A program made the position numbers and the translations under genes. From an uncultured Phycisphaerales bacterium (lineage in GTDB: Bacteria > Planctomycetota > Phycisphaerae > Tepidisphaerales > Tepidisphaeraceae), in NCBI GenBank assembly GCA_963755915.1, contig CAVWLP010000002.1, forward strand, positions 1,216,001 to 1,280,000: a stretch of 64,000 nt of DNA, in the 5' to 3' direction. Position 1 is the first letter of the stretch. Each line of letters begins with the position of its first letter. Positions 12,348-58,806 of the stretch are shown here, piece after piece. The notes under the pieces were generated by a model. It did no database searches and was not told the DNA's origin. It saw nothing but the letters and a program-made list of their open reading frames with translations.

Positions 12348-12519
12348 TAATCGACCCGCCTTTTCCCCCGCCACCGGTACTCCGGCCTTCGGCTCTGAGG
12401 CTCAGGCTCGAAGAGGGGAGGGCAGGGGAGGGGGTTTTCCCCGACGGGGAGATCTTGCGAAGGTGTTGCTGGTAAAATCGCTTTCGGCTAAACCAGTTGT
12501 TGTTCGCCAGGAGTTCATT

Positions 12520-14523
12520 ATGCGCTGGGCGGGTCTCCTTTTAGTCTTCTTCATCGCCGGCTGTACCACGACGCGGGAAATTACGATCACCGCCAGGCCC
12601 CCCGACACCATGATTACCGTCGACAACGGCCTTCAGAAGGGCATGGGCCAGATCACCGCCACCATTAAGTTCAAGAACGACACCGATGTCCATCTCGTCA
12701 CCGCCCAGCGCCGCGGCTACCAGGACAAAACCATCGCCCTGCATCGTGACGATCCCTCCAACAGCGTTGAAGTCGATCTCAGCCCCTATCAGAAGCACCT
12801 GAGCTTCTCCATCGTGCCGATCCCGGCAAACGTCTATGTCGATGGCACGCCGATCACCAGCGGGCCCGTTTCCCAGGCCGGCTCAGTCCAGGATTTCACC
12901 ATTGACGAGCAGGACAACTGGACGCATCACGACATCGTCGCCTCGCGCGAGGGTTGGGAGCCCGCTCGTCTCACCGTCAACTGGACCGACGCCTCCGCCG
13001 ATTACGTCCTCCAGCTCCAGCCCAAACGCAAGGACGTAACCATCACCACCAATCCCCCCGGCGCAACGGTCAATCTCGACGGCACCGACATCGGCACCGG
13101 CCCCGTCGTCGCCAAACAGCTCGCCTTTCCCTTCGACAACAGCAGCGGCCAATTCCCCAGCAAACGAATCATCATCTCTAAGGCCGGCTACGATCCCGTC
13201 GAGCGCGACATCTCCTGGGACAACGGCAAGGGCGATTACCAGATCGACCTCGTCCCCCACCAGAAAATCGTCCGCATCGTCACCGATCCCGCCGGCGCAG
13301 TCGTTAGCATCAACGGCCAACAAGCCGTCCCCGGCCCTGACGGCGTGCCCACGATTCAGCTCAGCTACGTGCCCGACAACGACGGCAATCTGCCGGTCTT
13401 TACGGCCAACGCCAGCAAACAAACCCAGCAGACCGAGTGGTATCCCGCCAACATCCCCATCGGCTGGGACGACGGCCGCAGCGAGTATTCCGTCACCCTC
13501 AAGGAAATCATGACCCGCTTCGTCCAGCAGACGACGGTCGATCTGCAGCGCGATTCCGACGGCGTCTGGCAGATCGTCCCCAAAGTTCAGCCCGATACCG
13601 TTGCGATGAAAGACATCAGCGAAGGCCCCGGCAAAGATCCCCCCACGCAGATCTTCCAGGCCCCGCACGGCTCCACGATCGGCACGCTGGCCGTCAGCCC
13701 CGACGGCACCAAAATCGTCTTCACCCTCATCTCCGGCTCCACCCGGCAGGAACTCCGCTCGCAAATCCTCGCCGTCGATACCAGCGGCCCCGGAAACGTC
13801 CAGGAAGTCACGGACGGCAAATCGCTCGACCTCATGCCCTCCTTCACGCCCGATGGCAGCCAGATCGTCTACTCCTCCAACCGCGCCGGCAAATACCTCA
13901 ACGTCTGGCGCAAGAGCCTCGACGGCGCGACCGGCATTGACCAGCTCACCTACGGCGACGAGCAGGATATGTGGCCCATGATCGACGCGATGCCTAAGCC
14001 GCGGCTATTTTACGAAGTCCTCTCCGACAGCCAGCCCGACCCGCAGCTTTACGTGGCGCCGGTGGACAGCAACCTGCGGACGGACCTGGCGACGATCCCG
14101 GTGAGTCAGCCGCGCGTGAGCCCGCGGGCGGATTCGCTGCTCTTCACCAGCGTCAACCAGCGGACTGGAAATAGAGAAATCTACCGCATCTCCGACCGCG
14201 GCGGCTCGCCGATCGAGATCACCAACGATCCCGATTCCGAGTGCTACGACCCCGCCTGGTCCAAGGACGGCAGCATGATGGCGTTCGTCTCCGACCGCTC
14301 GTTCGCGATTTTCCCCGAGCTGCACGACAACCGCGTCATCGACGTCCGCCGGCGGAATCCGGATATCTGGGTGGTGGAATTGGCCCATTCGGATAAGCCA
14401 GAGCAGGTGACGACAAACGGCAGCATCGACGACTGCCCGGCGTGGGACCCCAGCGGAAATGCCGTCTACTTCCGGAGTAACCGCGGCGGGGAGTGGGGGA
14501 TTTGGAAGATACCCGTCCGTTAG
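12520..14523 (+). CDS. Lipoprotein with PEGA-like domains and TolB-like PD40 beta-propeller
   Basis: Lipobox FIAGC; repeated IT.NPPGA.V.LDG PEGA-like units; PSFTPDG, PAWSKDG and PAWDPSG propeller repeats. Confidence 0.85.
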   Translation: MRWAGLLLVFFIAGCTTTREITITARPPDTMITVDNGLQKGMGQITATIKFKNDTDVHLVTAQRRGYQDKTIALHRDDPSNSVEVDLSPYQKHLSFSIVPIPANVYVDGTPITSGPVSQAGSVQDFTIDEQDNWTHHDIVASREGWEPARLTVNWTDASADYVLQLQPKRKDVTITTNPPGATVNLDGTDIGTGPVVAKQLAFPFDNSSGQFPSKRIIISKAGYDPVERDISWDNGKGDYQIDLVPHQKIVRIVTDPAGAVVSINGQQAVPGPDGVPTIQLSYVPDNDGNLPVFTANASKQTQQTEWYPANIPIGWDDGRSEYSVTLKEIMTRFVQQTTVDLQRDSDGVWQIVPKVQPDTVAMKDISEGPGKDPPTQIFQAPHGSTIGTLAVSPDGTKIVFTLISGSTRQELRSQILAVDTSGPGNVQEVTDGKSLDLMPSFTPDGSQIVYSSNRAGKYLNVWRKSLDGATGIDQLTYGDEQDMWPMIDAMPKPRLFYEVLSDSQPDPQLYVAPVDSNLRTDLATIPVSQPRVSPRADSLLFTSVNQRTGNREIYRISDRGGSPIEITNDPDSECYDPAWSKDGSMMAFVSDRSFAIFPELHDNRVIDVRRRNPDIWVVELAHSDKPEQVTTNGSIDDCPAWDPSGNAVYFRSNRGGEWGIWKIPVR

Positions 14524-14827
14524 GACGGGATTGCCGATTGCCGAATGGCGGATTGAAAAAGGTGCGAGCGAGATCGCTTTCTGGAGTCAGGACTTCGGTA
14601 CAAAACTTTACAGTCCGCAGACCTTGCACACCGGAAAGTTTTTAAGCCTTTTTGTTGTGCAGGGTTGCGTTCTGTTGTGCAGGAGCCCGACCACAAAGTT
14701 CAAAAAAAGAATGCCCGACCTATCAAATCGGGCACTCAAAGCCATTATGGGGAGGGGTTTTTCAACCTTCTCCGCCTTAGCGGGCAATCGTAATTATCGA
14801 CCAAATTAGCATAAAAGTCAAGTAAAG

Positions 14828-14858
14828 TACGGTGGGCGGGAGTCGAACCCGCACGCCC
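14828..14858 (-). other. tRNA 3-prime fragment (Leu-like), probable att-site remnant
   Basis: Minus strand gggcgt-GCGGG-TTCGACT-CCCGC-ccaccgta is a canonical T-arm plus acceptor 3-prime strand; no D-arm or anticodon arm upstream. Confidence 0.65.
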
Positions 14859-14901
14859 GCTAAAGCTGGGCTGGATGGGGGATTTGGGTGGCCGGTTTTC
14901 G

Positions 14902-14937
14902 TGATATCAATGATATCAATGATATCGGTGATATCGT
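14902..14937. repeat. Four tandem 9-bp units TGATATCNN
   Basis: tgatatcaa tgatatcaa tgatatcgg tgatatcgt. Confidence 0.85.
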
Positions 14938-15279
14938 GTTGAAACTCTAACCTGAAATTCGTCTTCCACCCTGACTTCGGCAAGCTCAGTCGAGTCGAGG
15001 CTAAGACCCGAAGAGAATCAAATTCGAATTCTGAAGTTCGAAATGGGGAAGGGATTCTAATCGGGTTGGGGCGGGTGAGCTGGGCGCCCGAGGGGGCGAC
15101 TGGATTCATTTCCGCAGCAACCGCACAGGGGAGTGGGGGATTCAGAAGATTCCGGTGAGGTGATGAGGGCAATTTGGGAAGCAACCCTTGTATGATGCCC
15201 TTATGACAGCTCTTTACTACGCGTGCGTCGTCCCGAATCAGGGGGCCCCGTTCCTGAGGAGCCAATATTTGGATGGCGA

Positions 15280-16035
15280 ATGAAAAATCCGCAGAATAAG
15301 GAAAATGGCATTATCGCAATTCTTGACGCTCTCGGGGCTGCCAACTACGGCGAGACGGAAATCGCGCGCTTTGTGGATTCGCGCCAACAGGTTCTTGAAC
15401 TTCTCGATGAGAAAGCATCCAATGTTTTCGGCAAAATCGACGCAGGAATGGTAACGACTTTCACTTTCAACGACACGATATTGATCGTGCTACGCACGGG
15501 ACTGACCCCACCGAAGCTTCAGGAAATTGGCAAATTCTTCTCAATAATGCGCAAATTTTTTGTTGATTCGCTCGAACACGGGATACTTTTCCGCGGATCA
15601 ATCGCGGTCGGAGACTTCTATGTCAATGACAAGACCAACACCGTGCTCGGAAAGGCCATTACCGATGCAGCTGCGTGGTATGACAAGGCAGACTGGATCG
15701 GTATTCACGCCACTCCACGAACCTCAATGGTGATACAGCGCTGGATCGAGAATTCACTTAGTATTAAAAAGGAGAATGTTCTTATCGACTACGATGTCCC
15801 GATGAAACACGGAGGCGCGGTTCGATTAAAGGCCGTAAATTGGCCGAAGATGTTCTTCAATAATTCCTATTCGCCCTGCAAAAACGATGAAGAACCAAGA
15901 GAAAAGCTCCTCCAGTTCTTGACGATTCATCAGGTTCCGGCCGGAACGGAATCTAAGTTTTTCAACACCGTCTCGTTCTTTGACCACGCGGCGAAACAAT
16001 TTTCCGGTTCACGGAAGCCAAAGAAAGCTAACTAG
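15280..16035 (+). CDS. Class III nucleotidyl-cyclase-like hypothetical protein
   Basis: IIAILDALG, FTFNDTILIV, LFRGSIAVGDF and VLGKAITDAA parallel the two metal-binding Asp strands and the RiGi..G / GxxVnxAa motifs; lower GC than the host. Confidence 0.55.
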   Translation: MKNPQNKENGIIAILDALGAANYGETEIARFVDSRQQVLELLDEKASNVFGKIDAGMVTTFTFNDTILIVLRTGLTPPKLQEIGKFFSIMRKFFVDSLEHGILFRGSIAVGDFYVNDKTNTVLGKAITDAAAWYDKADWIGIHATPRTSMVIQRWIENSLSIKKENVLIDYDVPMKHGGAVRLKAVNWPKMFFNNSYSPCKNDEEPREKLLQFLTIHQVPAGTESKFFNTVSFFDHAAKQFSGSRKPKKAN

Positions 16036-16099
16036 CCGAGGACAAGGGACGGGGACGGACAAGGAACTGGGACACAGTTAGTTTGAAACTAGCTGCGTT

Positions 16100-16245
16100 C
16101 CTAATGCCACGAAGTTAAGCTGCAACACAGTGTTTCTCCCATAGTTGCGATTTTACCTGGGCGCGAGGCTCGGTCAGATACGGAAACTGCTTCTTGGCAC
16201 GCTTCAGCACGCGCGGCTCCAGCCGACCCGGACGAAGCGGGGTCG
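16100..16245 (-). pseudogene. Remnant C-terminus and terminal IR of an IS4-family transposase
   Basis: RPGRLEPRVLKRAKKQFPYLTEPR resembles IS4-family C-termini; followed by cgtggcattag, an IS4-like end. Confidence 0.6.
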
Positions 16246-16252
16246 AACTCGA

Positions 16253-16300
16253 ACTGAATTGGACAGGACCCTTAATATTAAGGGTCCTGTCCAATTCAGT
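16253..16300. repeat. Perfect 48-bp palindrome
   Basis: actgaattggacaggacccttaat|attaagggtcctgtccaattcagt. Confidence 0.95.
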
Positions 16301-16456
16301 GATCTCAAAATACCGAGAATTGAGTTTTGCCGGTGATTCACGGCATAGGTCGGTCGAATTTGACAGCCCCATTCACGACCCCGAGACTATTTGGACATTT
16401 TTCCGCATTGCACAACCCAACTGCTAGAGGGCCACCGCCCTAGGAAATGGGATGCA

Positions 16457-17017
16457 ATGGATTACCTGAAAGCAATCCTTCCAGTTCTAACCTTCATCGC
16501 CGGTTATTTCTTGAGTAACCTCGACCGTCACCGAGATTTGCGGCGCAAGCTTCGCAATTTGAAGATGATTCTCTTCATGGAAATGTCGGCCAACTACGAA
16601 TTTCTAAACTCGGTCCTTCCGCTAAACGTGGAAGAGAAACCAATCGCCGAGCTTGTAGAAAGTGTGGCGTGGCGGTTGTCGTCTGACGTATATGACCGTT
16701 ATCTGGACCGACTTGACCAACTGCAAATTCAAGACCTAAGTAAGATCTACCAGGGCTGTGCAATGTTGAAGCGGCTTCAGGCTGACGTCAAAAAATTTCG
16801 AGCCCTCAAGGATCGCATCAACGCCGGCCCCGAAATTACGATCGAGCTGAACATGCAGGCCATGGTCCTTTCCGACGACGTCCAGATTTGCCACGAGCCC
16901 TTGGCCAAAGCCCTCGGCGTCTTTCAAAATGGGCCGTCATTTCTGCAGGGACAAAAGGCCAAACAGGGCAAACTATATGAACTCTACAAAGAAAGCTGCG
17001 AGAAATCGCGAGACTAA
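16457..17017 (+). CDS. Hypothetical protein with N-terminal TM anchor and helical body
   Basis: MDYLKAILPVLTFIAGYFLS then a charged helical region; lower GC. Confidence 0.65.
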   Translation: MDYLKAILPVLTFIAGYFLSNLDRHRDLRRKLRNLKMILFMEMSANYEFLNSVLPLNVEEKPIAELVESVAWRLSSDVYDRYLDRLDQLQIQDLSKIYQGCAMLKRLQADVKKFRALKDRINAGPEITIELNMQAMVLSDDVQICHEPLAKALGVFQNGPSFLQGQKAKQGKLYELYKESCEKSRD

Positions 17018-17164
17018 CGGGATCAGGTTCCGATCTGGGATAAATAATTCACCGCTCTCTCGCCTCGGCGAATCGACTGCTTCGCGAACCCACTGTCGCC
17101 GGGAAGGTCTGCTAGACTTAGGGCACTATGTGGTGCGCCCCCGCGACGTCAGACGTGTACTGTC

Positions 17165-18057
17165 ATGGGAAAAATGAACCCGCTCGGATTTGCCCTTTTC
17201 GGTCTGTCGTTCGGATTCATCGCGGCCCTGGCCGCGAGCGCCTTTGCTGCCGACACCCAGCCGTCCCCGCCCGAGCCGGTAGAAGTCCGCTATTCGCCGC
17301 CCATGCATCCGGCAGTGCTGGGGACGACGTTTGTGGACTGGGATTCGCTGGTGCCGCGGTATACGCCGGTGGGGCGGGCGGTGTCGGTTTTCGATAATCC
17401 CACGGCTGCGCTCCTCAAATTCGAAGTTCACATCACCACGCTGCGGCCGGGGATGCTTTCGCACGCGGTTCACCATCATGCCTGGGAGGAAATGCTGCTG
17501 ATCAAGGAGGGAAAAGTAGAAGTCTCGATCAACGGGAAGAAACATCCGGCCGGGCCGGGGTTTCTGATCTTTTTCGCTTCGCATGATCCGCACAACCTGA
17601 AAAACGTGGGGACGACGGATGCCACTTATTATGTCATCAATTTTGTGACCGATGTCGTTCACAGCGCTGAGGATCGGCCGGCGAGCGAGCAGGCCGTGCC
17701 CGGCAAACTGGCGTCCAGCGTGATTGACTGCGATGGCATTACGCCAACCGCAACGCCGACGGGGTCGCGAGTCGCCATCCTCGATTCGCCCACGCTCACG
17801 TTTCAGCGTCTGGTGATCCACATCACCACGCTGAATCCGGGTGAGAGCACTCGCTCTGACATGATCGACCCCGGCGATGAGCTGTTCATCGTCCGCTCGG
17901 GATTTCTGGAAGCGACAGTCAACGGCGTTACCTCCCGCATGAAGGAAGGCTCGCTCTTCTATTGCGCCCGAACGACAAGCGGGCGTTCAAGAACATCGGG
18001 GCTGCACCGGCGAGTTATCAGGTCTTCAAAGTCGTCTCGGACAAGTCGCCGCGTTAA
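17165..18057 (+). CDS. Secreted double-cupin protein (frameshift near 17965)
   Basis: Signal peptide; two HITTLxPG units, HHHAWEEMLLIKEG, PHNLKNVG; the corrected frame ends ..DKSPR-TAA at 18057. Confidence 0.8.
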
Positions 18058-18182
18058 GACGGATCACTCACCGCGGAGCACGCCAAGAGACTTCGGTGAA
18101 CTCAGTCGAACCGTGCCAAGAAAATACAAAACCGGAATTTCCTCCGCGATCTTTGCGCTCTCCGCGGTGACGTGCAAAACAT

Positions 18183-27412: not shown

Positions 27413-27430
27413 TATAACATTGTTTCGCTG

Positions 27431-32887: not shown

Positions 32888-33778
32888 TCACGCCGTCTGG
32901 CCGGCGGATACCCCCACATCAGAAGACAACGGCGGCTCTGTCACGGTGTCTTCCGGGGGGGAGCACCCTTCATCGCCGGCGGTACTCCGCCGTCCTTTTG
33001 GATTTGTCTTTTCCGGTGTCCCGGATTGGCCTGCCGTGAGCGAAGTCGAATGGCCCCCATGCCGAAGGCGGTAGCTCTTGCCGGTGATGTTGATGATCGT
33101 GGCGTGCTGCAGGAACCGATCCAGAATGGCCGTGGCCGCCGGCACGTCGCCGATCAGCTTGGCCCAGTCCTCCAGTGGACGGTTGCTGGTCATCATCGTC
33201 GAGCGGTTCTCGTGCCGGCGCATGACGATCTCCAGCAGGCATTCGCCGCTGCGCCGCGGAAGCTGCTTCATTCCCATGTCGTCGATGATAAGCAGATCAG
33301 GCTTGAGATACCGGGCCAGCGTCTTGTCCTGGGCTCCCAGATCCTCGTCGCCTAAAAAGTCGCGGGCCAGGTCGAAGATGGATCGGTACAGGACCACCAA
33401 GCCGCTCTTGATCGCCTGGTGTCCGATGGCCTGGGCCAAAAACGATTTGCCCACGCCGGGCGGACCCAGCAAGAGCACGTCACGTTTGTCACGAATGAAC
33501 TGGCCGGCGGCCAGATCGTGAATCTGTTTGCGTTTGATGGAGGTGTTGAAGGAGAAGTCGAACTCGTCGAGGTTTTTGGTGTCGCGGAACATCGCCGCCT
33601 TGACGCGCCGGCCGATCTGCCGGCTGGATCGGACGTTCAGTTCATCCTGAAGGATCAGTTCCAAAAACTCACTGTGGTCGAGCCGATTGCCGGCCGCCTC
33701 GCTCAGGCGAACTTCAAGGCTGCTCGCCAGACCTGAAAGCCGAAGTTGCTTGAGCGTCTGCATCAACGAAGGTCTCAT
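32888..33778 (-). CDS. istB: IS21 helper ATPase IstB
   Basis: LDEFDFSF, GPPGVGKS, LLIIDDMG, TSNRPLEDW, AILDRFLQHA, GKSYR. Confidence 0.95.
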   Translation of the reverse strand: MRPSLMQTLKQLRLSGLASSLEVRLSEAAGNRLDHSEFLELILQDELNVRSSRQIGRRVKAAMFRDTKNLDEFDFSFNTSIKRKQIHDLAAGQFIRDKRDVLLLGPPGVGKSFLAQAIGHQAIKSGLVVLYRSIFDLARDFLGDEDLGAQDKTLARYLKPDLLIIDDMGMKQLPRRSGECLLEIVMRRHENRSTMMTSNRPLEDWAKLIGDVPAATAILDRFLQHATIINITGKSYRLRHGGHSTSLTAGQSGTPEKTNPKGRRSTAGDEGCSPPEDTVTEPPLSSDVGVSAGQTA

Positions 33779-35531
33779 GGGGTGGACTCCCTTCGGCTCT
33801 GCTCAGGGCAGGCCTGTAAAGGTTGTGCGGCAGGCAAAGCCTCCGCTTGGGTGATTGCGTCGCGTACGAACTGTCCGTAATCGGCCAGTCCGCGGATGAT
33901 TGGATGTTCCTGAACAAACTCGAAGTGTTGTTGAACCGGCGCGCCGTTTTGGTGTTCGATGAGCTGCCGCAGGGAGCGCAGGTGATACGCGCCATGCCCC
34001 AGAGCAATCTCGCAGGCTCGTTCCACGGCCGGTCGCGGCTGCTGATTGGCCAGCGACAGCAGCCCCATCAACACGCGCACGCCTTCGATGCCGCGATGCT
34101 GAAGCATTGACTGCGCCCACTGCGTGGCGTGCGGCCCGATGCATTCGATCCGCTGGAGAAGCCAGGTCGTTCCACGCTCGATGCCGCTGATCTTCTCCGG
34201 CAGGATATGGGCGTCTTGCGTCGAGAACCTGCCCGGCGGACGCTGCGCGTGCAGAGCGATCGCACGCATCTTCTGATCGAACAGCCGGACCGTGCGCCCG
34301 TCCCACCGCGCCCAGACCCGCTGGCCCAAAAACTCCGGCGGGACCGAATAGTACGCCCCCTTGATCTCCACGTGCCCGTCGCGGTGAACACTGCGCAACG
34401 CCTCGGTGAAAAGATCGAATCGCACCGGCGGCAGAGCCAACAGTGCCGGCTTCTCTACCTGCTCGAAGACTTCCTTCACCTGCCGCCGCGTCGTGCCGTG
34501 GATGCGCGTGTCGGCCACGCTCTTCTCCCACGTCAGCAGATGCGCGTTCTGATCCGAGAGCGAGGCGAATTGCCGGCCTTTGAGAGCATTGCTCTTCACA
34601 TAGCCGATGCCCCGCTCGATCTTCCCCTTGTGCCGCGGCGTGTACGGCTTGGTGGGCAGAATGGCGATTCCATAATGTTCGGCGAACGACCGGACCTTGG
34701 GACACAACTCCGCCTCGAACCAGTCCGCCCGCGTCACCGCCGCGCGAAGATTGTCGATCACCAGCGCTGACGGCATCCCGCCGAAGTGCGTAAAGGCATT
34801 TTCCAGACAACGCAGAAAATCATCGGTCGTCTGCCGCTCCACCGCCTCGGCGTACCCCTTGCGGCTGTGGCTCAGCACAATGCGGAAGACCCAGGTTGCT
34901 TTGCGTTTGCCGTCAGGACCGACCAGGGCGCACCCCGGCCGAAGTCCACCTGCACCTCGGCTCCCGGCTCGCATTCCATCCGGCGAAAGGGCGCCGGCGC
35001 GGCAGCCGAGAGCTTCTTGATGAACCGGCGCACGCTGTAATAGCTGCCGGCATAGCCGTGATCGCTGGAGATGTCTTGATAAATCCGCTGGGCCGTCAGC
35101 CCGGCTTCCAACTTCTGAACAATGACCTCACGCCAGGGCGATGCCGTACTGACCGACCCGATGGGCGCACCGGATAACCCGGTGGGCGCGCTCTCCGAGC
35201 CGCCTGCGGCGAGCACCGTCGAGCCGCCTGCGGCGAGCACCGTCGAGCCGCCTGCGGCGAGCACCGTCGAGCCGCCTGCGGCGAGCACCGTCGAGCCGCC
35301 TGCGGCGAGCACCGTCGAGCCGCCTGCGGCGAGCACCGTCGAGCCGAGGGGCGCGCTGGCCGGTTTTGAATCCGATCCGGGCGCCGCAGGATCGCCGCCC
35401 GACAACCGGATGTGGCGTCCAACGGTCTCCCGGTGAACGCCGAGTTGGCGGGCGATGTTCCGATTGGACCAGCCGCTGCGCACAAGTGCCAAAATTGCTT
35501 GTACTTCCGCCATCTTGAGTTGATTGGCCAT
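33775..35531 (-). CDS. istA: IS21 transposase IstA (frameshift near 34925)
   Basis: N-terminal HTH (WSNRNIARQLGVHRETV), EPGAEVQVDFG, VIDNLR, PRHKGKIERGIGYVK, RIHGTT, YYSVP. Confidence 0.93.
35197..35346. repeat. 24-bp tandem repeat x6 inside istA
   Basis: (gagccgcctgcggcgagcaccgtc)x6 + gagccg; encodes (STVLAAGG)x6. Confidence 0.97.
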
Positions 35532-35807
35532 CCCACCATTGGCTTGCGGCAACCGCCGAAAGCCAAGGTCGATAACCCAATCTCCTGTGCCTCAAAATGG
35601 CCGGTTTTGGCGCGCCCTCAATTGGCCGGTTTTGCGCCCCATGACATCTGCCGTTGGAATGGCATTATCAATATAACGACTACGGGTGGAGCGCGAAGAG
35701 TGAAAATTTGTTTTGGTGGGGTTTTGTCAATTTTTTAGTAAATGTGGCGGCGAGTTTTTAGGGTTTGGGGGGTAGTGGTATACTCTCGCAATAACAGTTT
35801 TCGGTCA

Positions 35808-41692: not shown

Positions 41693-41778
41693 AGGGAAAT
41701 CCCCCACGGCGGCGCGGTTCGACTGCGCTCACCGAAGTCCGTGGCGTTCACAGATCAGAGTGACCTACGATTATGGCA

Positions 41779-46640: not shown

Positions 46641-46647
46641 GCACGGC

Positions 46648-47369: not shown

Positions 47370-47380
47370 CTGATCGATTT

Positions 47381-47408
47381 AGTGTATGGCTTGATGACAA
47401 AATGTCAA
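47381..47408 (-). promoter_or_regulatory. higBA promoter with overlapping palindromic operator
   Basis: TTGACA-16nt-TACACT, 11 nt before the ATG; TGACAaaaTGTCA palindrome (47395-47407) covers the -35. Confidence 0.7.
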
Positions 47409-47513
47409 CATATCCCGGGCACCACCGGAATATCGGCTGTTTCCTGCCAAAAAATTCCATACGGCGAAGCGGTTCTTTGCGGGCTGCCCTGGCTGTAATA
47501 TGTCGGCCACAAT

Positions 47514-50885: not shown

Positions 50886-50993
50886 TCGGTTCATTCACTG
50901 GCGGGGCGTTGTTGGTCACGTTGTCCGTTTTAGCTCCACGTTTATCCGTTGGACCCCGTATGGCTTTCAGCGAAAAAAGCAGAAGAATTTTTA

Positions 50994-51107
50994 TCGGTTA
51001 CGGTTTTGGTGACGAGAAGATTCGGGGGCTCGAATATAAAACGCGGTTCCGCTGCGAGGACACATGGCTGGCCTGGTGACGTTCGGTGCGGCCTTGGGGT
51101 GTTGGGC
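50994..51107 (+). repeat. 114-bp dispersed non-coding module, copy B
   Basis: About 88 percent identical to 43669-43782. Confidence 0.92.
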
Positions 51108-51263
51108 GGAAAGCGCCGTGCGGTTCGATGCAGCTCACCGAAATCAAGCACGGCGGCTACACGGGGTGGTCGATGGCGATTCAGTTTTGGACGTTTGTTT
51201 TGCGGTAATTAAATTCCTTGTCGACGGCGGTTGGGATTATGTCGAGCAGGGTAAAATGGGGTT

Positions 51264-52309
51264 GTGATACAGGCGCAAGGCATTCATGGCCGCGGGGCGG
51301 GGGAGAATCCGCGAAATCGTTTTTTGCCGCTGGAGGTTTTGCGGGATGAGGAGTTGGGTGGGGAAGAGGGGCCGGGGGTTGCGACTTCGTTTTTTAACGA
51401 TACCACGCGGAAAATTATCGCGACGAATGACAGCCCGGATGTGGGGTTTGAGGCGAGCGTTAATCCTTACCGGGGGTGCGAACATGGGTGCGTTTATTGT
51501 TTTGCGCGGCCGGGGCATGAATACCTGGGTTTGTCGGCGGGGCTGGATTTTGAGACGAAGATCATGGTGAAGCCGGAGGCGGCGCGGCTTTGTGCGCGGA
51601 GCTTTGCAGCGAGCGGTGGAAGCCGAAGGTGGTTCAGCTTTCGGGGGTGACGGATTGCTATCAGCCGGTGGAGCGGCGATTGAAGATCACGCGGGCGTGC
51701 CTGGAGGTGCTGGCGGAGTTTCGCAATCCGGTGACGATCGTGACGAAGAATCATTTGGTGACGCGAGATATCGATCTGCTGGGGGAATTGGCGCGGCACC
51801 ATTGCACGGCGGTGATGGTTTCGATAACGACGCTGGATAAGTCGCTGACGATGAAGATGGAGCCGCGGACGAGCGTGCCGGCGCGGCGGCTGGATGCGAT
51901 TCGGGAGCTATCGGCGGCGGGGGTTCCGGTGGGGGTGATGGCGGCGCCGATGATTCCGGGGCTGAACGATCAGGAGTTGCCGGCGATCCTGGAGGCGGCG
52001 GCGCGGGCGGGGGCGAAGTTCGCGGGGTATACGATGGTGCGATTGCCATTTGCGGTGAAGGAGTTGTTCGCGAGCTGGCTGGAGCGGCATTTTCCGGAGA
52101 GGAAAGAGAAGACTTTGAATCGCATTCGGGAGATTCGAGGGGGGAAATTGAATGACGCGAATTTCGGGTCGCGGATGTCGGGGGAGGGGATTTGGGCGGA
52201 GCAGCTCAGGGGGATGTTTGAGATGGGGAAGAAGAGGGCGGGGATGACGGGGACATTTCCGGGGCTTTCGACAGAGGGGTTTCGGAGGGGGCAGATGGAG
52301 CTGTGGTGA
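51264..52309 (+). CDS. PA0069-family radical SAM protein (frameshift near 51595)
   Basis: GRGA..NP.NRF, NPYRGCEHGCVYCFARP, SGVTDCYQPVE, MEPRTS. Confidence 0.9.
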
Positions 52310-52392
52310 TTTCCTATTTCCCATTGCCTATTTAAATGCGGGGATGGAGCGTCTCTGCTGCAATAGGAAATAGGAAATAGGAAATAGGCAAT
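52309..52392. repeat. Heptamer-based inverted repeat
   Basis: atttcct/attgcct units (52309-52333) facing aggaaat units (52361-52392). Confidence 0.8.
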
Positions 52393-52444
52393 CAATCACT
52401 TGGGGTGACAAAACCATCGTGATGGATCAAAATCAAATCGACTC

Positions 52445-53053
52445 ATGGTGATGCCGCAGCATGTTTCGCTGGATCCTCGGACGCTGCTGAGTGCGTATGC
52501 GCAGGGGTTGTTTCCGATGGCGAATCGATCGGGGCGGATTCAGTGGTATACGGCGGAGCCGCGGGGGATTATTCCGCTGGATCGGTTTCATGTGCCGGGG
52601 ACGCTGAAGTCGCTGGTGAAGAAATTGCCGCATGAGGGGGGGTTTGAGGTGAGGGTTAATTTTGATTTTGAGACGACGATGCGGTCTTGTCAGCTTGAAC
52701 ATCCGGATGGGACGTGGATCAACGATGAGCTGATCGCGGCGTATGTGCGGCTGCATAAGCTGGGGAGCGCGCACAGCGTGGAGACTTGGAAGGATGGGGA
52801 GCTGGCGGGGGGGTTGTATGGGGTGAGTTTGGGGGGGGCGTTTTTTGGGGAGAGTATGTTTCACAGGGTAAGGGATGCGAGCAAGGTGGCATTGGTTCAT
52901 TTGGTGAATCGGCTGAGGGAGAGGGGGTTTGAGCTTTTGGATACGCAGGCGACGACCCCGCATTTGAGAAGGTTTGGGTGCGTGGATATTCCATCCGAGG
53001 AGTATCTGAAGCTTTTGACGAGGGCGATTAAGAGGGAGTGTGAGTTTGCGTGA
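52445..53053 (+). CDS. aat: Leucyl/phenylalanyl-tRNA--protein transferase
   Basis: LLSAYAQGLFPM, PRGII, TWI, AHSVETW, LAGGLYGV.LGGAFFGESMF, DASKVAL. Confidence 0.95.
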   Translation: MVMPQHVSLDPRTLLSAYAQGLFPMANRSGRIQWYTAEPRGIIPLDRFHVPGTLKSLVKKLPHEGGFEVRVNFDFETTMRSCQLEHPDGTWINDELIAAYVRLHKLGSAHSVETWKDGELAGGLYGVSLGGAFFGESMFHRVRDASKVALVHLVNRLRERGFELLDTQATTPHLRRFGCVDIPSEEYLKLLTRAIKRECEFA

Positions 53054-53136
53054 GGGTTAAGCGGCGCGGCGTTTGACAGGGTGAAGCGGCGAGCAAGCTC
53101 GCCGGCTACACGAAGAGTTGGGGGCGTGGGGGGAAG

Positions 53137-53481
53137 TTAGGCTTCGGGCTCGATGGTGACGGTGAGGCCCTTGGACTGGAACTGCTCCTGGTAGAGCTCT
53201 GCGCGTTCTTTGTGGGTGGTGAGGAGTAGGGCGAGTCCGCGATCGTGGGCTTCGAGCATGCGGTTCATGGCGTCCTGGCGATTGAGGGGGGTGAGCTCGA
53301 CAATCGACTGGATGACGAAGAGCATTTCGTTCTTATCATCATTGTGGAGCAGGACTTTCCACTTGGGGAGCTGGGCCGGGGGGGACTTGGCCGGGGTGGT
53401 CTGAGGCCGGGGCGCGGCGACAGCGGTAGAGGCCGTCCCTTCGGATGGCGGCGAATCGAGTTGTTTCCCCTGCTCAGGCAT
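53137..53481 (-). CDS. clpS: Clp protease adaptor ClpS
   Basis: WKVLLHNDDKN, MLEAHDRG, HKERAELY, LTVTIEP. Confidence 0.9.
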   Translation of the reverse strand: MPEQGKQLDSPPSEGTASTAVAAPRPQTTPAKSPPAQLPKWKVLLHNDDKNEMLFVIQSIVELTPLNRQDAMNRMLEAHDRGLALLLTTHKERAELYQEQFQSKGLTVTIEPEA

Positions 53482-53666
53482 GTGGTACTAATCGGTCAAA
53501 ATACGACATCGGGCCAAACAACCCCATCGAATCATAATACACTTCAAATGTTCGACAGGAAAGCGGATTTTTCGGTAATGTTACGGTGATTTAGCGCCGC
53601 GGTAGTTCAAAATAGAGAATTTATGGGGCGATAAAGGACGGAACTCGGGCTACGGTTGTAATTTTC

Positions 53667-54831
53667 ATGGATGGAAACCAGCGAATAATTGCCGGAGCGA
53701 TGAGCGGGACCAGCGCGGATGGGGTGGACGTGGCGCTGGTGAGGATTACCGGATGCGGTCTGGAAATGAGGGCGGAGCTGATGCGGTGGCATGCGAGGGC
53801 TTTTCCGCGGGAGCTTCGAGAAGCCATCTGCTGGATCAGGATGGGGGAGAAGATAGCCATTGGGGAATTGGCGCGGGTGGGGAGGGAGATTTCGATTTGT
53901 TATGCGGCGGGGATCAATGAGGCGCTGCTGATGTCGGGAGTTGGGTCGGATGAGCTTGCCGCGGTGGCGGCGCATGGGCAGACGCTTTACCACGATCCGC
54001 CTTGCACGGTTCAATGGTTTGATCCGGCACTGGTGGCGGCGGAAGTGGGGTGCGCGGTGATCAGCGATTTTCGGCGGGCGGATTGCGCGGCGGGAGGGCA
54101 GGGGCGCCGCTGGTGCCGTTCGCGGATTTTGTGCTGTTTCGAGATCCAAAGAAGAACCGGGTGCTGCTGAATATTGGGGGGATTGCGAATATTACTTATC
54201 TTCCGCGCGGCGGGGGGATTGAGGATGTGGTGGCGTTCGATACGGGGCCGGGGAATTGTATCAGTGATTATCTGGTGCGGCAGGCGGATGGGGGCGGGGC
54301 GGGACATGATGCTGGGGGAAAGATGGCGGCGAGCGGGAGGGTGATCGAGGAGATCGTGGAGGGGGTGATGGGGGATGAGTATTTTGCGAAAGGGCCGCCG
54401 AAATCTACGGATGGGAAGGGGATGATTGAAATATTCTTGAAGCACGCGGCCCCCACCCTGGCCCTCCCCCGGAGTACCAGGGGAGGGGAAGAGGGGAAAA
54501 ATCGCTGGCGGATCTTTTGAGCACGGCGTGCGCGATTACCGTAAGATCGATCATGGAATCGATGCGGCGATTTTTGAAGGCGTTTCCGGAGGAGATTTTC
54601 GTCAGCGGCGGGGGAGTGCATAATGCGACGATGATGGGAATGCTGCGAAGCGCCGCGCGTGAGTCGGTGGTGAAGACGGCGGAGGATCTGGGGATTGCGG
54701 CGGAGGCGAAGGAGGCGATGGCGTTTGCGCTGCTGGGGGCGGCGACGCTGGATGGAGTGGGGGGGAATGTGCCGAGCGCGACGGGGGCGAGGAAGAGGGT
54801 GGTGTTGGGGTCGGTGACGCCCAGGCCGTGA
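53667..54831 (+). CDS. anmK: Anhydro-N-acetylmuramic acid kinase (two frameshifts, REP insertion)
   Basis: GAMSGTSADGVD, HGQTLYH, DFRRAD.AAGGQGAPLVP, LNIGGIANIT, FDTGPGN, PPKST, SGGGVHN, KEAMAFA. Confidence 0.93.
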
Positions 54832-54842
54832 GGGGAAATCTT

Positions 54843-54897
54843 AAATCCGAAATCCGAAGTCCGAATGACGAATCAAACTCGAAATCCGAATGACGAA
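54843..54897 (+). repeat. Heptamer (aatccga/aatgacg) repeat tract between anmK and murQ
   Basis: aaatccgaaatccgaagtccgaatgacgaatcaaactcgaaatccgaatgacgaa. Confidence 0.75.
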
Positions 54898-55809
54898 AGG
54901 GGGGCGGTGGTGGATCGATCGCATTTGCTCACGGAGCGGCGACTCGCGGAGTCGGTGAATCTGGATCGGCTTCCGGTTGCGGAGGCGCTGGCGATTTTTA
55001 ATGAGCAGGATGCGATCGCGGTGAGGGCGGTGGGTTCGCAACAGGAGCAGATTGCGCGGGCGATTGAAATCGTGGCGGGGGCGCTGGGGGCGGGGGGAAG
55101 GCTGATTTATGTGGGGGCGGGGACGAGCGGAAGGCTGGGAGTGCTGGATGCGGCGGAATGTCCGCCGACGTTTGGGGTCGATCCGAATATGGTGCAGGGG
55201 ATTATCGCGGGGGGGCCGTCGGCGGTTTTCCGGTCGGTCGAAGGGGCGGAGGATCGGGGGGAGTATGGGGCGGCGGCGATGGATGAGGCGAAGGTGGGGA
55301 AATTGGATGTGGTGATGGGGATCGCGGCGGGGGGGACTACGCCGTTTGTGCGCGGGGCGGTGGAGAGGGCGCGGGAGGTGGGGGCGAAGACGATTTTTTT
55401 GTGCTGCGTGGGTCAGACGCCGGGGGAGCCGGCGGTTGACGTGGTGATCCGGCCGCTGACGGGGGCGGAGATTTTGACGGGATCGACGCGGCTGAAAGCG
55501 GGGACGGCGACGAAGCTGGTGCTGAATCAGATTACGACACTGAGCATGGTGCGGCTGGGGAAGGTTTATGAGAATTTGATGGTGGATTTGAAGGCGACGA
55601 ATGCGAAATTGCGGGATCGGGCGGTGAGGATTGTGGCGACGTTGTGCGGGTTGTCGCGAGAGGAGGCGATGGGAGTGCTGGAATTGGCGGGGGGGGAAGT
55701 GAAGATGGCGATTGTGATGAAGAGACGTTCGGTTGATAAAAGGGAAGCGGCGGAGCTGCTGCGAAAGACCGCGGGGAATTTAAGGGAGGCGCTTTCGGGT
55801 CAGCGCTGA
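54865..55809 (+). CDS. murQ: N-acetylmuramic acid 6-phosphate etherase
   Basis: LTERR, YVGAGTSGRLGVLDAAECPPTFG, EGAED, TGSTRLKAGTATKLVLN, NLMVD; the true start may be slightly downstream. Confidence 0.95.
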   Translation: MTNQTRNPNDERGAVVDRSHLLTERRLAESVNLDRLPVAEALAIFNEQDAIAVRAVGSQQEQIARAIEIVAGALGAGGRLIYVGAGTSGRLGVLDAAECPPTFGVDPNMVQGIIAGGPSAVFRSVEGAEDRGEYGAAAMDEAKVGKLDVVMGIAAGGTTPFVRGAVERAREVGAKTIFLCCVGQTPGEPAVDVVIRPLTGAEILTGSTRLKAGTATKLVLNQITTLSMVRLGKVYENLMVDLKATNAKLRDRAVRIVATLCGLSREEAMGVLELAGGEVKMAIVMKRRSVDKREAAELLRKTAGNLREALSGQR

Positions 55810-56942
55810 TCGATCGGCACGGTTTTGAGTCCCATCGGGCCGTGATAATCGTCCTGGGGGCGGATGATGCGGTTGTTGCTGTGCTGCTCCATGATGTGGG
55901 CGGTCCAGCCGGCGATTCTTGCGATGGCGAAGATAGGGGTGTAGAGGTCGATGGGGATGCCCATGGTGTAGTAGGCGCTGGCGCTGAAGAAATCGACGTT
56001 GGGGTCTTTGTTCTTCATTTCCTTGACGACGGGGATGAGCCGCTCGGACATTTCATACCACTTGGAGTTTCCGGCGGCTTCGCCGAGCTGTTTGCTCATT
56101 TTGCGGAGGAAGGCGGCGCGTGGATCGAAGGTTTTGTAGACGCGGTGACCGAAGCCGGGGACTTTTTCGCCGCTGGAGAGCATGGCGCGGACTTTTTTGA
56201 CGGCGGTTTCGGCGCTGCCGCAATCGAGGAGGAGCTGCATGACTTCCTGGTTGGCGCCGCCATGGAGGGGACCCTTGAGCGCGGCGATGGCCGCGGTGAC
56301 GGCGGCGTGCATGTCGGCGAGGGTGGCGGCGGTGACTCGGGCGGCGAAGGTGCTGGCGTTAAAGCCGTGCTCGGCGTGGAGGACCAGGGCGGCGTCGAGG
56401 ACGCGCACGAGGGTGTCGTGCGGGTGGGAGCCGGTGAGCATGTGCAGAAAGTTGGCGGCGATGGAAATGCCGGGGTCGGGCTCGATCAGTTTCTGGTTGT
56501 TGCGCAGGCGGTGGAAGGCGGCGACGATTGTCGGAAATTGAGCGGTGAGGCGGATGGCTTTTCGAAGGTTGGCGGCGGGTTCGTTGCTTTGAAGATCGGG
56601 GTCGGTGCTGCTGAGGGAGCTGACGGCGGTGCGAAGGGCGTCCATCGGCTCGGTGGAGGCGGGGAGGGCGCGGAGGATGGCCAGCGTGTGGCCGGGGAGG
56701 GTGGCGTGGGCGCCGAGATCGGATTTAAGTTTTGAAAGCTCGGAGCGGTTGGGGAGCTTGTTGGACCAGAGGAGGTAGGCGGTTTCCTCGAAGGAGGGGT
56801 TTTCGACGAGGTCGCCGATGTCGTAGCCGCGGTAGACCAATTTGCCGGCGGAGCCGTCGATGAAACAGATTTCGCTGGGTGCTGCGACGACGCCTTCAAG
56901 TCCGCCCGGATTTTTTGCTGGAGACGAAACCACCTGAGTCAT
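55800..56942 (-). CDS. Citrate synthase (type I)
   Basis: GLEGVVA, LVYRGY, LHAEHGFNASTFAAR, LKGPLHGGAN, PGFGHRVYK..DPR, PNVDF. Confidence 0.95.
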   Translation of the reverse strand: MTQVVSSPAKNPGGLEGVVAAPSEICFIDGSAGKLVYRGYDIGDLVENPSFEETAYLLWSNKLPNRSELSKLKSDLGAHATLPGHTLAILRALPASTEPMDALRTAVSSLSSTDPDLQSNEPAANLRKAIRLTAQFPTIVAAFHRLRNNQKLIEPDPGISIAANFLHMLTGSHPHDTLVRVLDAALVLHAEHGFNASTFAARVTAATLADMHAAVTAAIAALKGPLHGGANQEVMQLLLDCGSAETAVKKVRAMLSSGEKVPGFGHRVYKTFDPRAAFLRKMSKQLGEAAGNSKWYEMSERLIPVVKEMKNKDPNVDFFSASAYYTMGIPIDLYTPIFAIARIAGWTAHIMEQHSNNRIIRPQDDYHGPMGLKTVPIDQR

Positions 56943-57255
56943 GCAAACTCCGATCAACCAAAATCGCGAGGTTCCACCGCAAATGCGAGGGTTCCGGCGG
57001 ACTATAGCGGTGGGGGGGAGGGGTCGTCAATTCAAAAGTGGGGGTTGCGGCAAAGTGTTTGGGGGCGGATATTTGGGGCCTGAAAACGGGGCGAAAGCAA
57101 GTCAATGGTGAGGGTTGCAAGGGGTGTGAGGGAGGCGGGTTCGGGGAGGTAAACGGCGAAGATTACGCTGTCGGAATTCTGTCTGCTGGAGGCGGCGACG
57201 GGGCGGGCGGATTAGGCTTGACGAAGTCGGGGTCGATTGGGCAACCTAGCTGGCC

Positions 57256-57594
57256 ATGGAACCCACACTATTTTCAAAGATCATCGATCGGAAGATTCCG
57301 GCGAAGGTGGCGTATGAGGATGAGCGATATATTGCGATCTATGACATCAGCCCTCAGGCGCCGGTGCATTTTCTGGTGATTACCAAGAAGGTGATTCCGA
57401 CGCTGAATGATCTGAAGCCGGGGGATGCGGAGCTGGTGGGGGGGATGTTTCTGGTGGCGGCGCAATTGATGAAGCAGATGGGGCATAGCGATTATCGAAC
57501 GGTCTTTAACTGCGGGCCGGGGGCGAATCAGACGGTTTTTCATCTGCATTTGCATGTGCTGGCGGGGAGGGAGTTTGGGTGGCCACCGGGGTGA
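57256..57594 (+). CDS. Histidine triad (HIT) nucleotide-binding protein
   Basis: LFSKII..KIPA, DISPQAPVH, QTVFHLHLHVLAGR..WPPG. Confidence 0.95.
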   Translation: MEPTLFSKIIDRKIPAKVAYEDERYIAIYDISPQAPVHFLVITKKVIPTLNDLKPGDAELVGGMFLVAAQLMKQMGHSDYRTVFNCGPGANQTVFHLHLHVLAGREFGWPPG

Positions 57595-57694
57595 CCCTGG
57601 ATACGGAATCGCGACTCTTGGGGGGTGCGAAACGCACCCCTGCGGGGTTGCGACTAAACGGGGAGGGGTATTTCTCACGAGTGTGGTCATCGAA

Positions 57695-58657
57695 TCAGCC
57701 GGCGCCGCCGATGAGGATGCCGGCGAGAAAGACAAGCACGCCGCCGACGATGACCTGGAAGGCGGCGGAGAGGAAGGGGGTGTCCATGTAATGGTTGCGG
57801 ATATAGCTGATGACCAGCAGCTCGATGGCGACGACGATGACGGCGACGGCGGTGGCGGTGTGGAAGCTGGGGATGAGAAAGGGCATGGTGTGGCCGATGC
57901 CGCCGGCGGTGGTCATCAGGCCGCAGACGATGCCGCGGAGGAGGGGTTTTCCGCGGCCGGTGAGTGAGCCATCGTCGCTGGCGGATTCCGCGAAGCCCAT
58001 GGAGATTCCCGCGCCGACGCTGGCGGCGAGGCCGACGCGGAAGGCGTCGTGGGAACTTTGGGTGGCGAAGGCGGCGGCAAAGAGGGGGGCGAGGGTGGAG
58101 ACGGAGCCGTCCATCAAGCCGGCCAATCCCGGCTGGACGACCTGGAGGACGAAGAGCCGGCGGGTGGCTTCGTCCTCGGCATTTTCGGCGGCCGGAGTCA
58201 GGTTTTTTTCGGTCAGGGATTCAGCGAGCTGCTCGTGGCCGCGCTCGGCCTGGGCGAGGTCGAGCAGCAACTGGCGGGTGGAGACATCCGACACTTTCTC
58301 GGCGGATTTTTCGTAAAAGAGGCGGGTTTCCAATTCCATCGATTCGGCGAGCTTGCGGACGGATTTGATGGGAAGCACGCGCGTTGTCCAGACGGGGCGG
58401 CGGTTGACGAAGCCTTTGACGTCGCCGCGGCGGAGGAGGGGAATGTGCTCGCCGAAACGCTGGCGGTAGATTTCGGTGAGGCGGCGGTGGTGCTCGACTT
58501 CCTCGGCGCGCATGCCGTCGAAAACTTTGGCGGTGGAGGGGTTGTCGGTGCTGAGGCGCGTGGCGATGTCGGCGTAGATTCTGGCGTCTTCTTCTTCAGA
58601 GGAGATGGCGACGGCGAGGATTTCCTGTTCGGTGAGGTCGATGAAGCGTTTGGGCAT
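57695..58657 (-). CDS. mbfA: Iron exporter MbfA (rubrerythrin + VIT1/CCC1)
   Basis: LTEQEILAVAISSEEEDARIY, VQPGLAGLMDGSVSTLAP, VGAGISMGFAE, GGIGHTMPF. Confidence 0.92.
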   Translation of the reverse strand: MPKRFIDLTEQEILAVAISSEEEDARIYADIATRLSTDNPSTAKVFDGMRAEEVEHHRRLTEIYRQRFGEHIPLLRRGDVKGFVNRRPVWTTRVLPIKSVRKLAESMELETRLFYEKSAEKVSDVSTRQLLLDLAQAERGHEQLAESLTEKNLTPAAENAEDEATRRLFVLQVVQPGLAGLMDGSVSTLAPLFAAAFATQSSHDAFRVGLAASVGAGISMGFAESASDDGSLTGRGKPLLRGIVCGLMTTAGGIGHTMPFLIPSFHTATAVAVIVVAIELLVISYIRNHYMDTPFLSAAFQVIVGGVLVFLAGILIGGAG

Positions 58658-58806
58658 TGGGGCTCCGAGAAGGTGGAAGGGGCGGGGGATTTTATCAAAT
58701 TGTGAGGGACGAAGGGATTTTTGAAAGGGCGGAGCGGCGAGCCGTTCGGCGGGCTCACGGCGAGCAAGCTCGCCGGCTACACGGGATACAAGGGGGTATA
58801 CGGGGG

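Follow-up and report, generated by a model that had tools for sequence, protein, structure and literature searches.

The window analysed here is a stretch of 64,000 nucleotides (64 kb) from an uncultured soil bacterium of the Phycisphaerales, phylum Planctomycetota (GenBank assembly GCA_963755915.1, contig CAVWLP010000002.1, positions 1,216,001 to 1,280,000 of the forward strand). It contains a number of very short DNA units, several of them lying inside other repeats such as repetitive extragenic palindromes (REPs), and it is these units that we discuss. An element of the IS21 family of insertion sequences (IS), with genes istA and istB on the minus strand at 32888-35650, also carries stretches that resemble them. 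The initial annotation of the window described a single family of nine short palindromes. All nine units are indeed there, with the one given as starting at 33031 better placed at 33029-33052. However they do not form one family, and we divide them into F1, its subfamily F1b, F2, an F3-like unit and a coding array in istA.

F1 is a family of 24-nt units with the consensus GACTTCGGYGAGCNNNGTCGARCC, and F1b (GCTCGCCGTGAGCNNNGYCGAACG) is a diverged F1 subfamily that is resident in one subtype of GTAG-tagged REP. F2 is a family of 30-nt hairpins, and F3 is a 24-mer, CCCTTCGACAGGCTCAGGGCAGGC, that has 15 of 24 positions in common with F1 and hosts F1 in other phyla. The core CTTCG...GCTCAG is common to F1, F2 and F3.

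Copy number and filled and empty sites

In the genome of the window, G000, the F1 pattern has 67 matches if one mismatch is allowed and its reversed control has none, and a chance origin of the pattern is excluded. A profile search (nhmmer), with the IS arrays set aside, gave 84 copies in 17 host contexts, and by clustering of the flanks there are 22 copies in host b, 21 in host a and 8 each in hosts d and c.

The same host repeats are also found empty. Empty and filled copies were counted with strict regular-expression anchors and the counts are lower bounds. Host a (GAACGCCCACG^GCGCCGCCGTGGGG) is empty in at least 34 cases, and carries an additional 24 nt in at least 13 and 54 nt in at least 2. 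For host d (GTGCCGCCG^GTGTCCTCACCGGCGG) the corresponding figures are at least 19, at least 5 and at least 2. Host b, which is a GTAG-type REP (GTAGCCGCCNNGCTT^GCNNGGCG), is empty in at least 47 cases, with an additional 24 nt in at least 16 and 23 nt in at least 3. In the case of the GGTACTCCGG REP (CCGGTACTCCGG^GGGAGGG) there are at least 151 empty copies, at least 11 with a 30-nt F2 unit and at least 1 with 60 nt. The 54-nt inserts consist of F1 with an F2 nested in it at GAGCT^CAGTC, F2 being found in both orientations, while the 60-nt insert is F2 nested in F2; an F1-like unit nested in F2 was also observed in G000.

The pairs of filled and empty sites that had been pointed out within the window itself are borne out. 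The REP at 6931-6970 and that at 12365-12435 differ by exactly 30 nt, and the empty site at 53086 and the filled one at 58734 by 23 nt. The GTAG-type REP filled at 51122 has an empty copy at 1580-1607, and the hairpin filled at 41716 has a sister at 3476-3494 whose loop is TACT. The inserts are non-coding and, as was proposed, ultra-short and evidently non-autonomous, with lengths that are mostly multiples of three (24, 30 and 54).

Truncated F1 copies are essentially absent from G000 in a scan for half-sites that used strict patterns, loose ones being swamped by coding matches. There were 12 matches to the left half only, of which 7 are units with a nested F2, 4 are of a 26-nt variant and 1 is a chance-like match in coding DNA. 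Of the 3 matches to the right half only, 1 resembles a genuine truncated copy.

The units at 14973 and 18089 are bridged, unchanged, by short-read contigs from independent public runs. This rules out an assembly artefact and nothing more, as the public runs may include the source sample.

G000 is unusually rich in short repeats in general. It has REP families of the GGTACTCCGG type (more than 150 copies), the GTAG type and the GTTTAGCCGCGAC type, and numerous arrays of heptamers (GGCAATC, CGCAGAG, GAAATTC, GGTTTCT and TGCGAGT). There are also tandem doublets of F1b with a period of 23 nt at C2:4617981-4618027 and C2:4857252, each followed by the REP arm GCTCGCC, and the mini-units seem to be prone to tandem duplication, as in the istA array described below.

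Structure of the units

The units had been described as palindromic. However a hairpin fold was obtained for F2 only (z-score -2.0, with fold energies of -13.7 and -8.3 kcal/mol on opposite strands), the z-scores for F1 and F3 being 0.1 to 1.35 and the fold energy of F1 not below that of shuffled sequences.

In F1 it is covariation that points to a helix. Among 36 distinct 25-mers from G000 the pair (9,22) has the strongest mutual information and (8,23) the third strongest. A helix of positions 6-9 with 22-25 is Watson-Crick in 109 of 120 cells, F1b included, compared with a mean of 83.6 for permutations, none of 2000 of which reached 109, a figure that overstates independence because the sequences are related by descent. 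With the partners slid the values are 15/120, 41/120 and 28/90. Changes on both sides are found in three of the four pairs (G-C/C-G, G-C/A-T/T-A and C-G/T-A), and position 25 is the G that flanks the unit. The 4-bp helix closes a 12-nt loop, whose ends (GAGC...GTCGA) are conserved while its centre, positions 14-16, is hypervariable. We infer from these comparisons a single-stranded hairpin form of the unit, which could be derived from either strand and could be DNA or RNA.

Several other models for F1 were tried and rejected, including palindrome and pseudoknot models. A hairpin of positions 4-9 with 17-22 is compatible with F1 itself and breaks in F1b, in which C7/C19, G5/A21 and C4/A22 would be mismatched. 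A likeness to the tRNA D-arm (a 10-nt identity) was set aside because the match involves positions 14-16, which are hypervariable, and a hammerhead-like core on the reverse strand gave no match to the consensus.

Insertion sites

The proposal that the units target REP hairpin loops holds in part. The unit in host b is at the 3' edge of the loop, and there is some enrichment for hairpins in other phyla, where a perfect stem of at least 7 bp is present at the junction in 12 of 64 sites, compared with 11 of 256 positions taken from those loci as controls. However units are also found in stem arms, heptamer arrays and coding DNA. In hosts a and d the insert is in the 5' stem arm, 3 nt before the loop, and in hosts c and f it is within heptamer arrays, the heptamer hosts of F1 being arrays of GGCAATC, CGCAGAG and TGCGAGT.

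The sole near-invariant feature of the target is an adjoining G. In deduplicated contexts from other genomes the base at +1 is G in 65 of 67 and the base at -2 is C in 38 of 67. F1 itself starts with G, and there are thus two possible readings of the junction, [GACTT...CC]^G or G^[ACTT...CCG].

In G000, 73 of the 84 F1 copies fall between genes as called by a crude home-made program, which leaves about 24% of the genome intergenic. With regard to the direction of flanking genes there is no bias, with 24 copies sense and 23 antisense. The cumulative GC skew of contig C3 of G000 rises monotonically from end to end, and this contig is perhaps one replichore, or part of the chromosome, and not a replicon in its own right.

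The positions of the units in the window, and of empty counterparts, are given in Table 1.

Table 1. Short units and empty host repeats in the window
Feature	Position	Strand	Context
F1 copy GACTTCGGCAAGCTCAGTCGAGTC	14973..14996	+	Intergenic; next base G; short-read contig bridges with 0 differences
F1 copy	18089..18112	+	Within CGCCAAGA-type short tandem repeat; bridged by short-read contig
F1 copy, exact T/A variant with GCA centre	41716..41739	-	5' arm of host hairpin a (GAACGCCCACG^GCGCCGCCGTGGGG)
F1 copy, diverged	51122..51145	-	GCTT^GC in loop of GTAG-type REP (host b)
F1b copy, 23 nt, GCTCGCCGTGAGCCCGCCGAACG	58743..58765	-	GTAG-type REP with stem GGCGAGC/GCTCGCC; first 7 nt of unit repeat the REP arm downstream of it
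F2b copy, 30-nt hairpin unit CCTTCGGCTCTGAGGCTCAGGCTCGAAGAG	12386..12415	+	3' arm of CCGGTACTCCGG^GGGAGGG REP (12365-12435)
F3-like 25-mer CCCTTCGGCTCTGCTCAGGGCAGGC, resembling CCCTTCGACAGGCTCAGGGCAGGC	33789..33813	+	Final codons of istA
F1b-like 24-mer GCCTGCCGTGAGCGAAGTCGAATG, then G	33029..33052	+	Antisense in istB, right after IstB_IS21 domain; in all copies of its IS
Tandem array, 5 nt + 6 x 24 nt (GCCTGCGGCGAGCACCGTCGAGCC on + strand)	35197..35345	-	In istA
Empty REP	6931..6970	+	Counterpart of F2-filled 12365-12435
Empty GTAG-type REP gcggcgagc^aagctcgccggctacac	53077..53103	-	Sister of filled 58734
Empty GTAG-type REP GTAGCCGCCCCCGCTT^GCGGGGCGC	1580..1607	+	
Empty sister of host hairpin a	3474..3496	+	Loop TACT

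Related genomes and orthologous loci

Within the genus the number of F1 copies, with at most one mismatch, ranges from 0 to 87. Of 18 genomes of the family, 13 have the pattern (counting G014, with one match), and in 12 genomes that represent other families of the class it was not found. Host repeats of the window also occur at loci in records titled Phycisphaerales, in keeping with a probable place of the organism in the Phycisphaerae. The nearest relative, G001, has 110 F1 pattern matches; its coding identity to G000 is about 86-95%, and its sequence amounts to 6.1 Mb in 5 contigs with a marker completeness of 66%.

It was suggested that orthologous loci be compared for presence and absence of the units. 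Repeat content does differ between G000 and G001 at such loci, but none of the six window loci gave a clean difference of the bare unit, as either the whole repeat is gone or there is another filler. The hairpin at 41716 is missing together with its unit from the orthologous spacer in all 12 genus relatives, G001 included, and the REP with F2 at 12386 is missing at the G001 locus. At the spot orthologous to 18089, G001 has a longer block of repeats, in which an F1-like unit is oriented the other way, and the REP loop orthologous to that at 51122 has a different and longer filler. The empty REP at 53086 is itself absent at the orthologous place in G001. These differences show that repeat content at orthologous sites is turning over quickly.

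The filler in G001 (on C5, orthologous to 51100-51170 of the window) is about 55 nt in length and contains GGAGTACC, which is related to a 24-copy repeat of G000, TGCGGAGTACCGCTCCTCGCCTCCGGCTGCGG. It seems that REP loops receive mini-inserts of several kinds.

Distribution in other phyla and in genes

The exact F1 pattern was found in at least 121 stretches, with one genome taken per species. The titles of the matches listed name more than 15 phylum-level groups, among them Planctomycetota, Chloroflexota, Nitrospirota, Nitrospinota, Verrucomicrobiota, Victivallales, Acidobacteriota, 'delta' and Desulfobacterota groups, Bdellovibrionota, Latescibacterota, Tectomicrobia, Sumerlaeota, Omnitrophota, WOR-3, Methylomirabilis and Patescibacteria, although titles of metagenome-assembled genomes may be wrong and the phylum counts must be read with caution. 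One Actinomycetes record among those listed is atypical and probably a chance match, and one Promethearchaeota record is a single copy on a 4-kb contig. A record titled Bryobacteraceae (L012) and one titled Tepidisphaeraceae (L047) have identical flanks and the same prefix to their isolate names, which suggests mis-binning or recent transfer. F1 is also present in 18 stretches of viral contigs.

For five genomes the whole sequence was searched with up to two mismatches, and all controls gave 0. There are 74 matches in G031 (titled Ca. Amarolinea aalborgensis, Chloroflexota) and 79 in G033 (titled 'delta proteobacterium'), with 4, 2 and 1 in the three others. G033 has 40% GC in the two regions that were fetched. 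Among the copies listed, the dominant variant in G033 is one identical T/A sequence and that in G031 is a C/G sequence, and the difference in dominant variant points to separate recent expansions in the two genomes. Nesting of F1 in F1 or in F3 is found in other phyla at loci L005, L019, L026, L046, L064, L090, L050, L063, L100 and L120.

Many of the sites are in coding sequence. At 56 of 113 full-length loci at least one frame is open across the whole 324 nt, which is little above the expectation for GC-rich DNA. Twelve protein-like frames were picked, and 5 of these have one Pfam domain match that spans the insert, the domains being penicillin amidase, pyruvate kinase, MR_MLE_N, AICARFT/IMPCHase (PurH) and MacB_PCD. 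Of the remaining 7, two have a domain on one side only and five are without a match. In G033 (C41:111836-113692) there are six F1 copies within a span of 1.1 kb, all inside one open reading frame (ORF) that has acyl-carrier-protein (PP-binding) domains and is flanked by ORFs of polyketide-synthase type, as in a polyketide cluster or one resembling those for synthases of polyunsaturated fatty acids (PUFA). These copies are partly embedded in a 60-nt tandem module.

The IS21-family element

The IS21-family element is present in 31 copies in G000 and has three mini-element-like stretches inside its genes. The array in istA is translated in frame as (GSTVLAAG)6, and lies between the helix-turn-helix (HTH) and rve (integrase-core) domains. 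We have 30 such arrays, with 1 to 12 units each and 172 units in total. The array unit, GCCTGCGGCGAGCACCGTCGAGCC, is identical to F1 at 20 of 24 positions, and we estimate that chance alone would produce a match of this quality about 0.2 times in a genome as large as G000. It is thus plausible, and not proven, from the sequence that the array is related to F1, the equal period of 24 nt being of some help in this regard.

In the window copy istA is split over two ORFs, 35552-34872 and 34974-33775, that overlap and differ in frame. The split suggests that a frameshift has occurred in this copy or that frameshifting is programmed.

Candidate mobilising enzymes

The window was said to have no identifiable mobilising enzyme, and there is none there. 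A link with the REP-associated tyrosine transposases (RAYTs), which had been put forward for checking, does not stand up, as Y1_Tnp is found in all genomes tested and does not track F1 copy number. The numbers of Y1_Tnp matches and F1 copies are 2 and 67 in G000, 1 (weak) and 17 in G011, 6 and 0 in G003, and 3 and 0 in G008. The one strong RAYT-like gene in G000 is flanked by its own palindromes, unrelated to F1. It lies outside the window, at C3:1125095-1125780, with the flanking repeat GGGGACGCAGCTAG...CTAGCTGCGTCCCC, and with its palindromes looks like a REPtron that has no relation to F1.

With regard to reverse transcriptases, G000 has 15 matches to RVT_1, of which 12 are identical ORFs of 474 amino acids that are group II intron-like and probably copies of one group II intron. 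There are no RVT_1 matches in G001, despite its 110 F1 matches, but given the marker completeness this absence is unproven and counts only mildly against a reverse-transcriptase route.

Proposed explanation and alternatives

We consider it likely that the window units belong to a superfamily of ultra-small, non-autonomous mobile insertions that resemble the SDR (small dispersed repeat) elements of Nostoc, with a tail-plus-hairpin signature and a target adjacent to G. The unit would be moved, or copied, in the form of a single-stranded hairpin, more likely of DNA than of RNA, through a trans-acting enzyme that recognises both tail and hairpin, and would be joined next to a G where the DNA is for a time single-stranded. 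A single-stranded target would explain the excess at hairpin tips, stem arms and heptamer arrays. Most of the copies in any one genome would be second-hand, arising by amplification of the host REP or by conversion between REP copies.

A broader version, which we offer tentatively and rate at rather less than an even chance, is that F1, F2 and F3 make up a class of mobile DNA, the smallest known, that extends across the bacteria. Its units, of 24-30 nt with a tail and a hairpin, would be moved by an enzyme for single-stranded DNA (ssDNA) that either spreads horizontally or is universal and has been hijacked, and would be inserted beside a G such that the target G completes the helix of the unit. 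If this is true then intergenic repeats are being remodelled by the class, and proteins in more than 15 phylum-level groups gain 8-residue loops from it, and a mechanistic tie to the accompanying heptamer arrays may exist.

A number of observations weigh against mobility of this type. A mover has not been found, although no search was aimed at GIY-YIG/Ssn, DUF559, serine recombinases or TnpB. There is no transposase-like gene near the F1 clusters on C1 of G000, where the translated ORFs were read, the clusters on C35 and C41 of G033 have by Pfam only ordinary genes (FTHFS, MltA, and polyketide synthase and acyl carrier protein, PKS/ACP), and the ORFs listed for the G031 clusters include no mover. 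Elements of the IS200/IS605 type, which use ssDNA, are expected to have a strand bias, and with 38 copies on the leading and 46 on the lagging strand there is none for F1 in G000, although this test is blurred if units hitch-hike on host repeats. The hairpin enrichment outside G000 is real but modest. The covariation in the helix derives from a few subfamilies that are kin by descent, and the intermediate pair states seen in relatives and other phyla have no clear strand preference in a count by eye. The four short-read runs consist of contigs only, which are unable to show rare insertion or excision variants. Finally, within each host repeat the position and orientation of the unit are identical in all copies, and much of the F1 copy number is for this reason probably due to hitch-hiking on REP amplification or to REP-REP conversion and not to separate insertions. 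The number of independent insertions in G000 may be closer to 17 than to 84, and the units may no longer be active there.

This constancy of position and orientation would also fit an explanation in which the units are fossil passengers, each host having been hit once long ago and the copies being due to amplification of REPs, heptamer arrays and IS21 together with gene conversion. The units would then be immobile now, or never have been mobile beyond a handful of events. Variants that are partly host-specific, such as the TGT centre in 11 of the 22 host-b copies, fit with this, as do the differences between G000 and G001 at 41716 and 12386, which involve composites of REP and unit and not bare units, and the istA array, which multiplies along with its 31-copy IS. 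However C/G and T/A variants are both found at the same site of the same hosts, there are 17 contexts within one genome, F1/F2/F1 stacks are nested, and insertions are present in unique coding sequence. There are also near-identical bursts in three phyla, including the 40%-GC genome, in which, of roughly 140 copies listed, most are identical letter for letter. We think it unlikely that the units are only fossils, while giving this more weight than the other alternatives. One of these is retro-insertion, with the unit transcribed, processed to a 24-nt structured RNA and reverse-transcribed back into DNA. An RNA-mediated mechanism is said to have been suggested for SDRs, the conserved helix of F1 tolerates G-T (G-U in RNA) states, F2 folds better on one strand than on the other, and there are the RVT_1 genes of G000, 12 of them identical and group II intron-like. 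But for G001 the RVT_1 count is zero, with the reservation made above, the units have no sense or antisense bias relative to flanking genes, and copies truncated at the 5' end are essentially absent, and we regard this route as improbable.

The hypervariability of positions 14-16 could be a repair scar if the 24-mer were an excision footprint, comprising two 12-nt ends left by a larger cut-and-paste transposon, and the two halves do form a weak inverted repeat (6 of 12 by eye). However in G000 there is no longer element bounded by both halves, with all 12 of the left-only halves accounted for, the length of the unit is fixed, and the pairs 6-9/22-25 do not fit the register of a terminal inverted repeat, which makes a footprint very improbable. 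We give just as little credence to a functional motif, such as a protein-binding site or a module for RNA stability or termination, that is kept by selection and spread by recombination. The extreme conservation of sequence across phyla and the mainly intergenic location in G000, in or near hairpins, are what speak for it. Against it are the in-frame copies within enzyme domains and in an acyl-carrier-protein linker region, the insertion of units into their own copies, a patchy distribution that ranges from 0 to 87 copies within the genus with none in the 12 genomes from other families of the class, and the result of an Rfam search of the whole 64-kb window at gathering score, which gave 0 matches. 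Mobile insertions of SDR-like type thus remain our preferred explanation.

Significance and comparison with known systems

A 24-base sequence that has no gene and yet multiplies in unrelated phyla raises the question of what recognises and moves it. The answer is probably a new site-specific or structure-specific enzyme for single-stranded DNA, which would be of basic and possibly practical interest. For annotation of genomes, F1 makes spurious small ORFs and also in-frame inserts of 8 residues (DFGELSRA, TSASSVEP, GSTELAEV and ARLSSPKS) in real enzymes. It converts simple REPs to 'long forms', and can mislead the discovery of repeats and RNA motifs. The patchy and burst-like distribution could mark recent horizontal exchange among soil and water bacteria. 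Among the papers searched, none prints the F1 24-mer or its 19-nt parts, and a search by concept gave nothing relevant.

With regard to elements already described, miniature inverted-repeat transposable elements (MITEs) have terminal inverted repeats, a target-site duplication of at least 2 nt, usually a length of more than 50 nt, and a related autonomous IS. In contrast F1 is of 24 nt, has an ambiguity of at most 1 nt, a G, at the junction, and no parent element was found for it. Rickettsia palindromic elements (RPEs) are palindromic, about 100-150 nt in length, restricted to Rickettsia, and survive in genes by keeping the frame. F1 is like them in being a selfish repeat that is tolerated inside coding genes through frame-keeping, but is non-palindromic, 24 nt long and pan-phylum.

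The REPs associated with RAYTs are imperfect palindromes of 20-40 nt with a short tail and a hairpin, and have GTAG or CGTC tags, as described by Di Nocera et al. 2013 (PMC3733652) and Bertels & Rainey 2011 (PMC3116915). F1 resembles REPs and REPINs in having a tail and hairpin, in its size, in being mainly extragenic and occasionally intragenic, in copy number that varies among relatives, and in a presumed single-strand substrate, and there is a further link in that host b is itself a GTAG-type REP. However F1 is without a GTAG or CGTC tag, has a stem of only 4 bp and a fold z-score of about 0, and varies little in sequence across many phyla, REPs being specific to a lineage. No cognate RAYT flanked by F1 was found in G000, and Y1_Tnp numbers do not follow F1. 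F1 is not a REP as Di Nocera et al. (PMC3733652) describe these elements.

The NTS/SRM repeats are hairpins of about 30 nt with an oriented non-palindromic tag, and are recognised by the Ssn GIY-YIG single-strand nucleases, according to Chenal et al. 2025 (PMC11893778). Recognition by Ssn is by analogy a possible model for recognition of F1. In a comparison by eye, the SRM pattern given there, HGTCWY...RNCYNB, is not matched by F1.

The closest analogue of F1 is provided by the SDRs of Nostoc. SDR1-8 of Nostoc punctiforme and relatives are reportedly dispersed, multi-copy sequences of 21-27 nt with no encoded enzyme. They are said to be found in heptamer tandem repeats and other small repeats, to be self-nested, and to have a structure that is supported by compensatory changes. 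F1 is like them in size, copy number and lack of a gene, and also in its heptamer and REP hosts, in nesting within the family and in its compensatory helix. The differences are that F1 is in addition found in frame within conserved enzyme genes, and that the host here is not a cyanobacterium. Among HIP1-rich cyanobacteria no SDR-like repeat is reported outside the Nostocaceae in PMC5861425, and on that account SDRs are in Nostocaceae only, whereas F1 is in genomes with more than 15 phylum-level titles and in viral contigs. The likeness of F1 to the SDRs is one of behaviour, and it is in this sense that we call the units of the window SDR-like.

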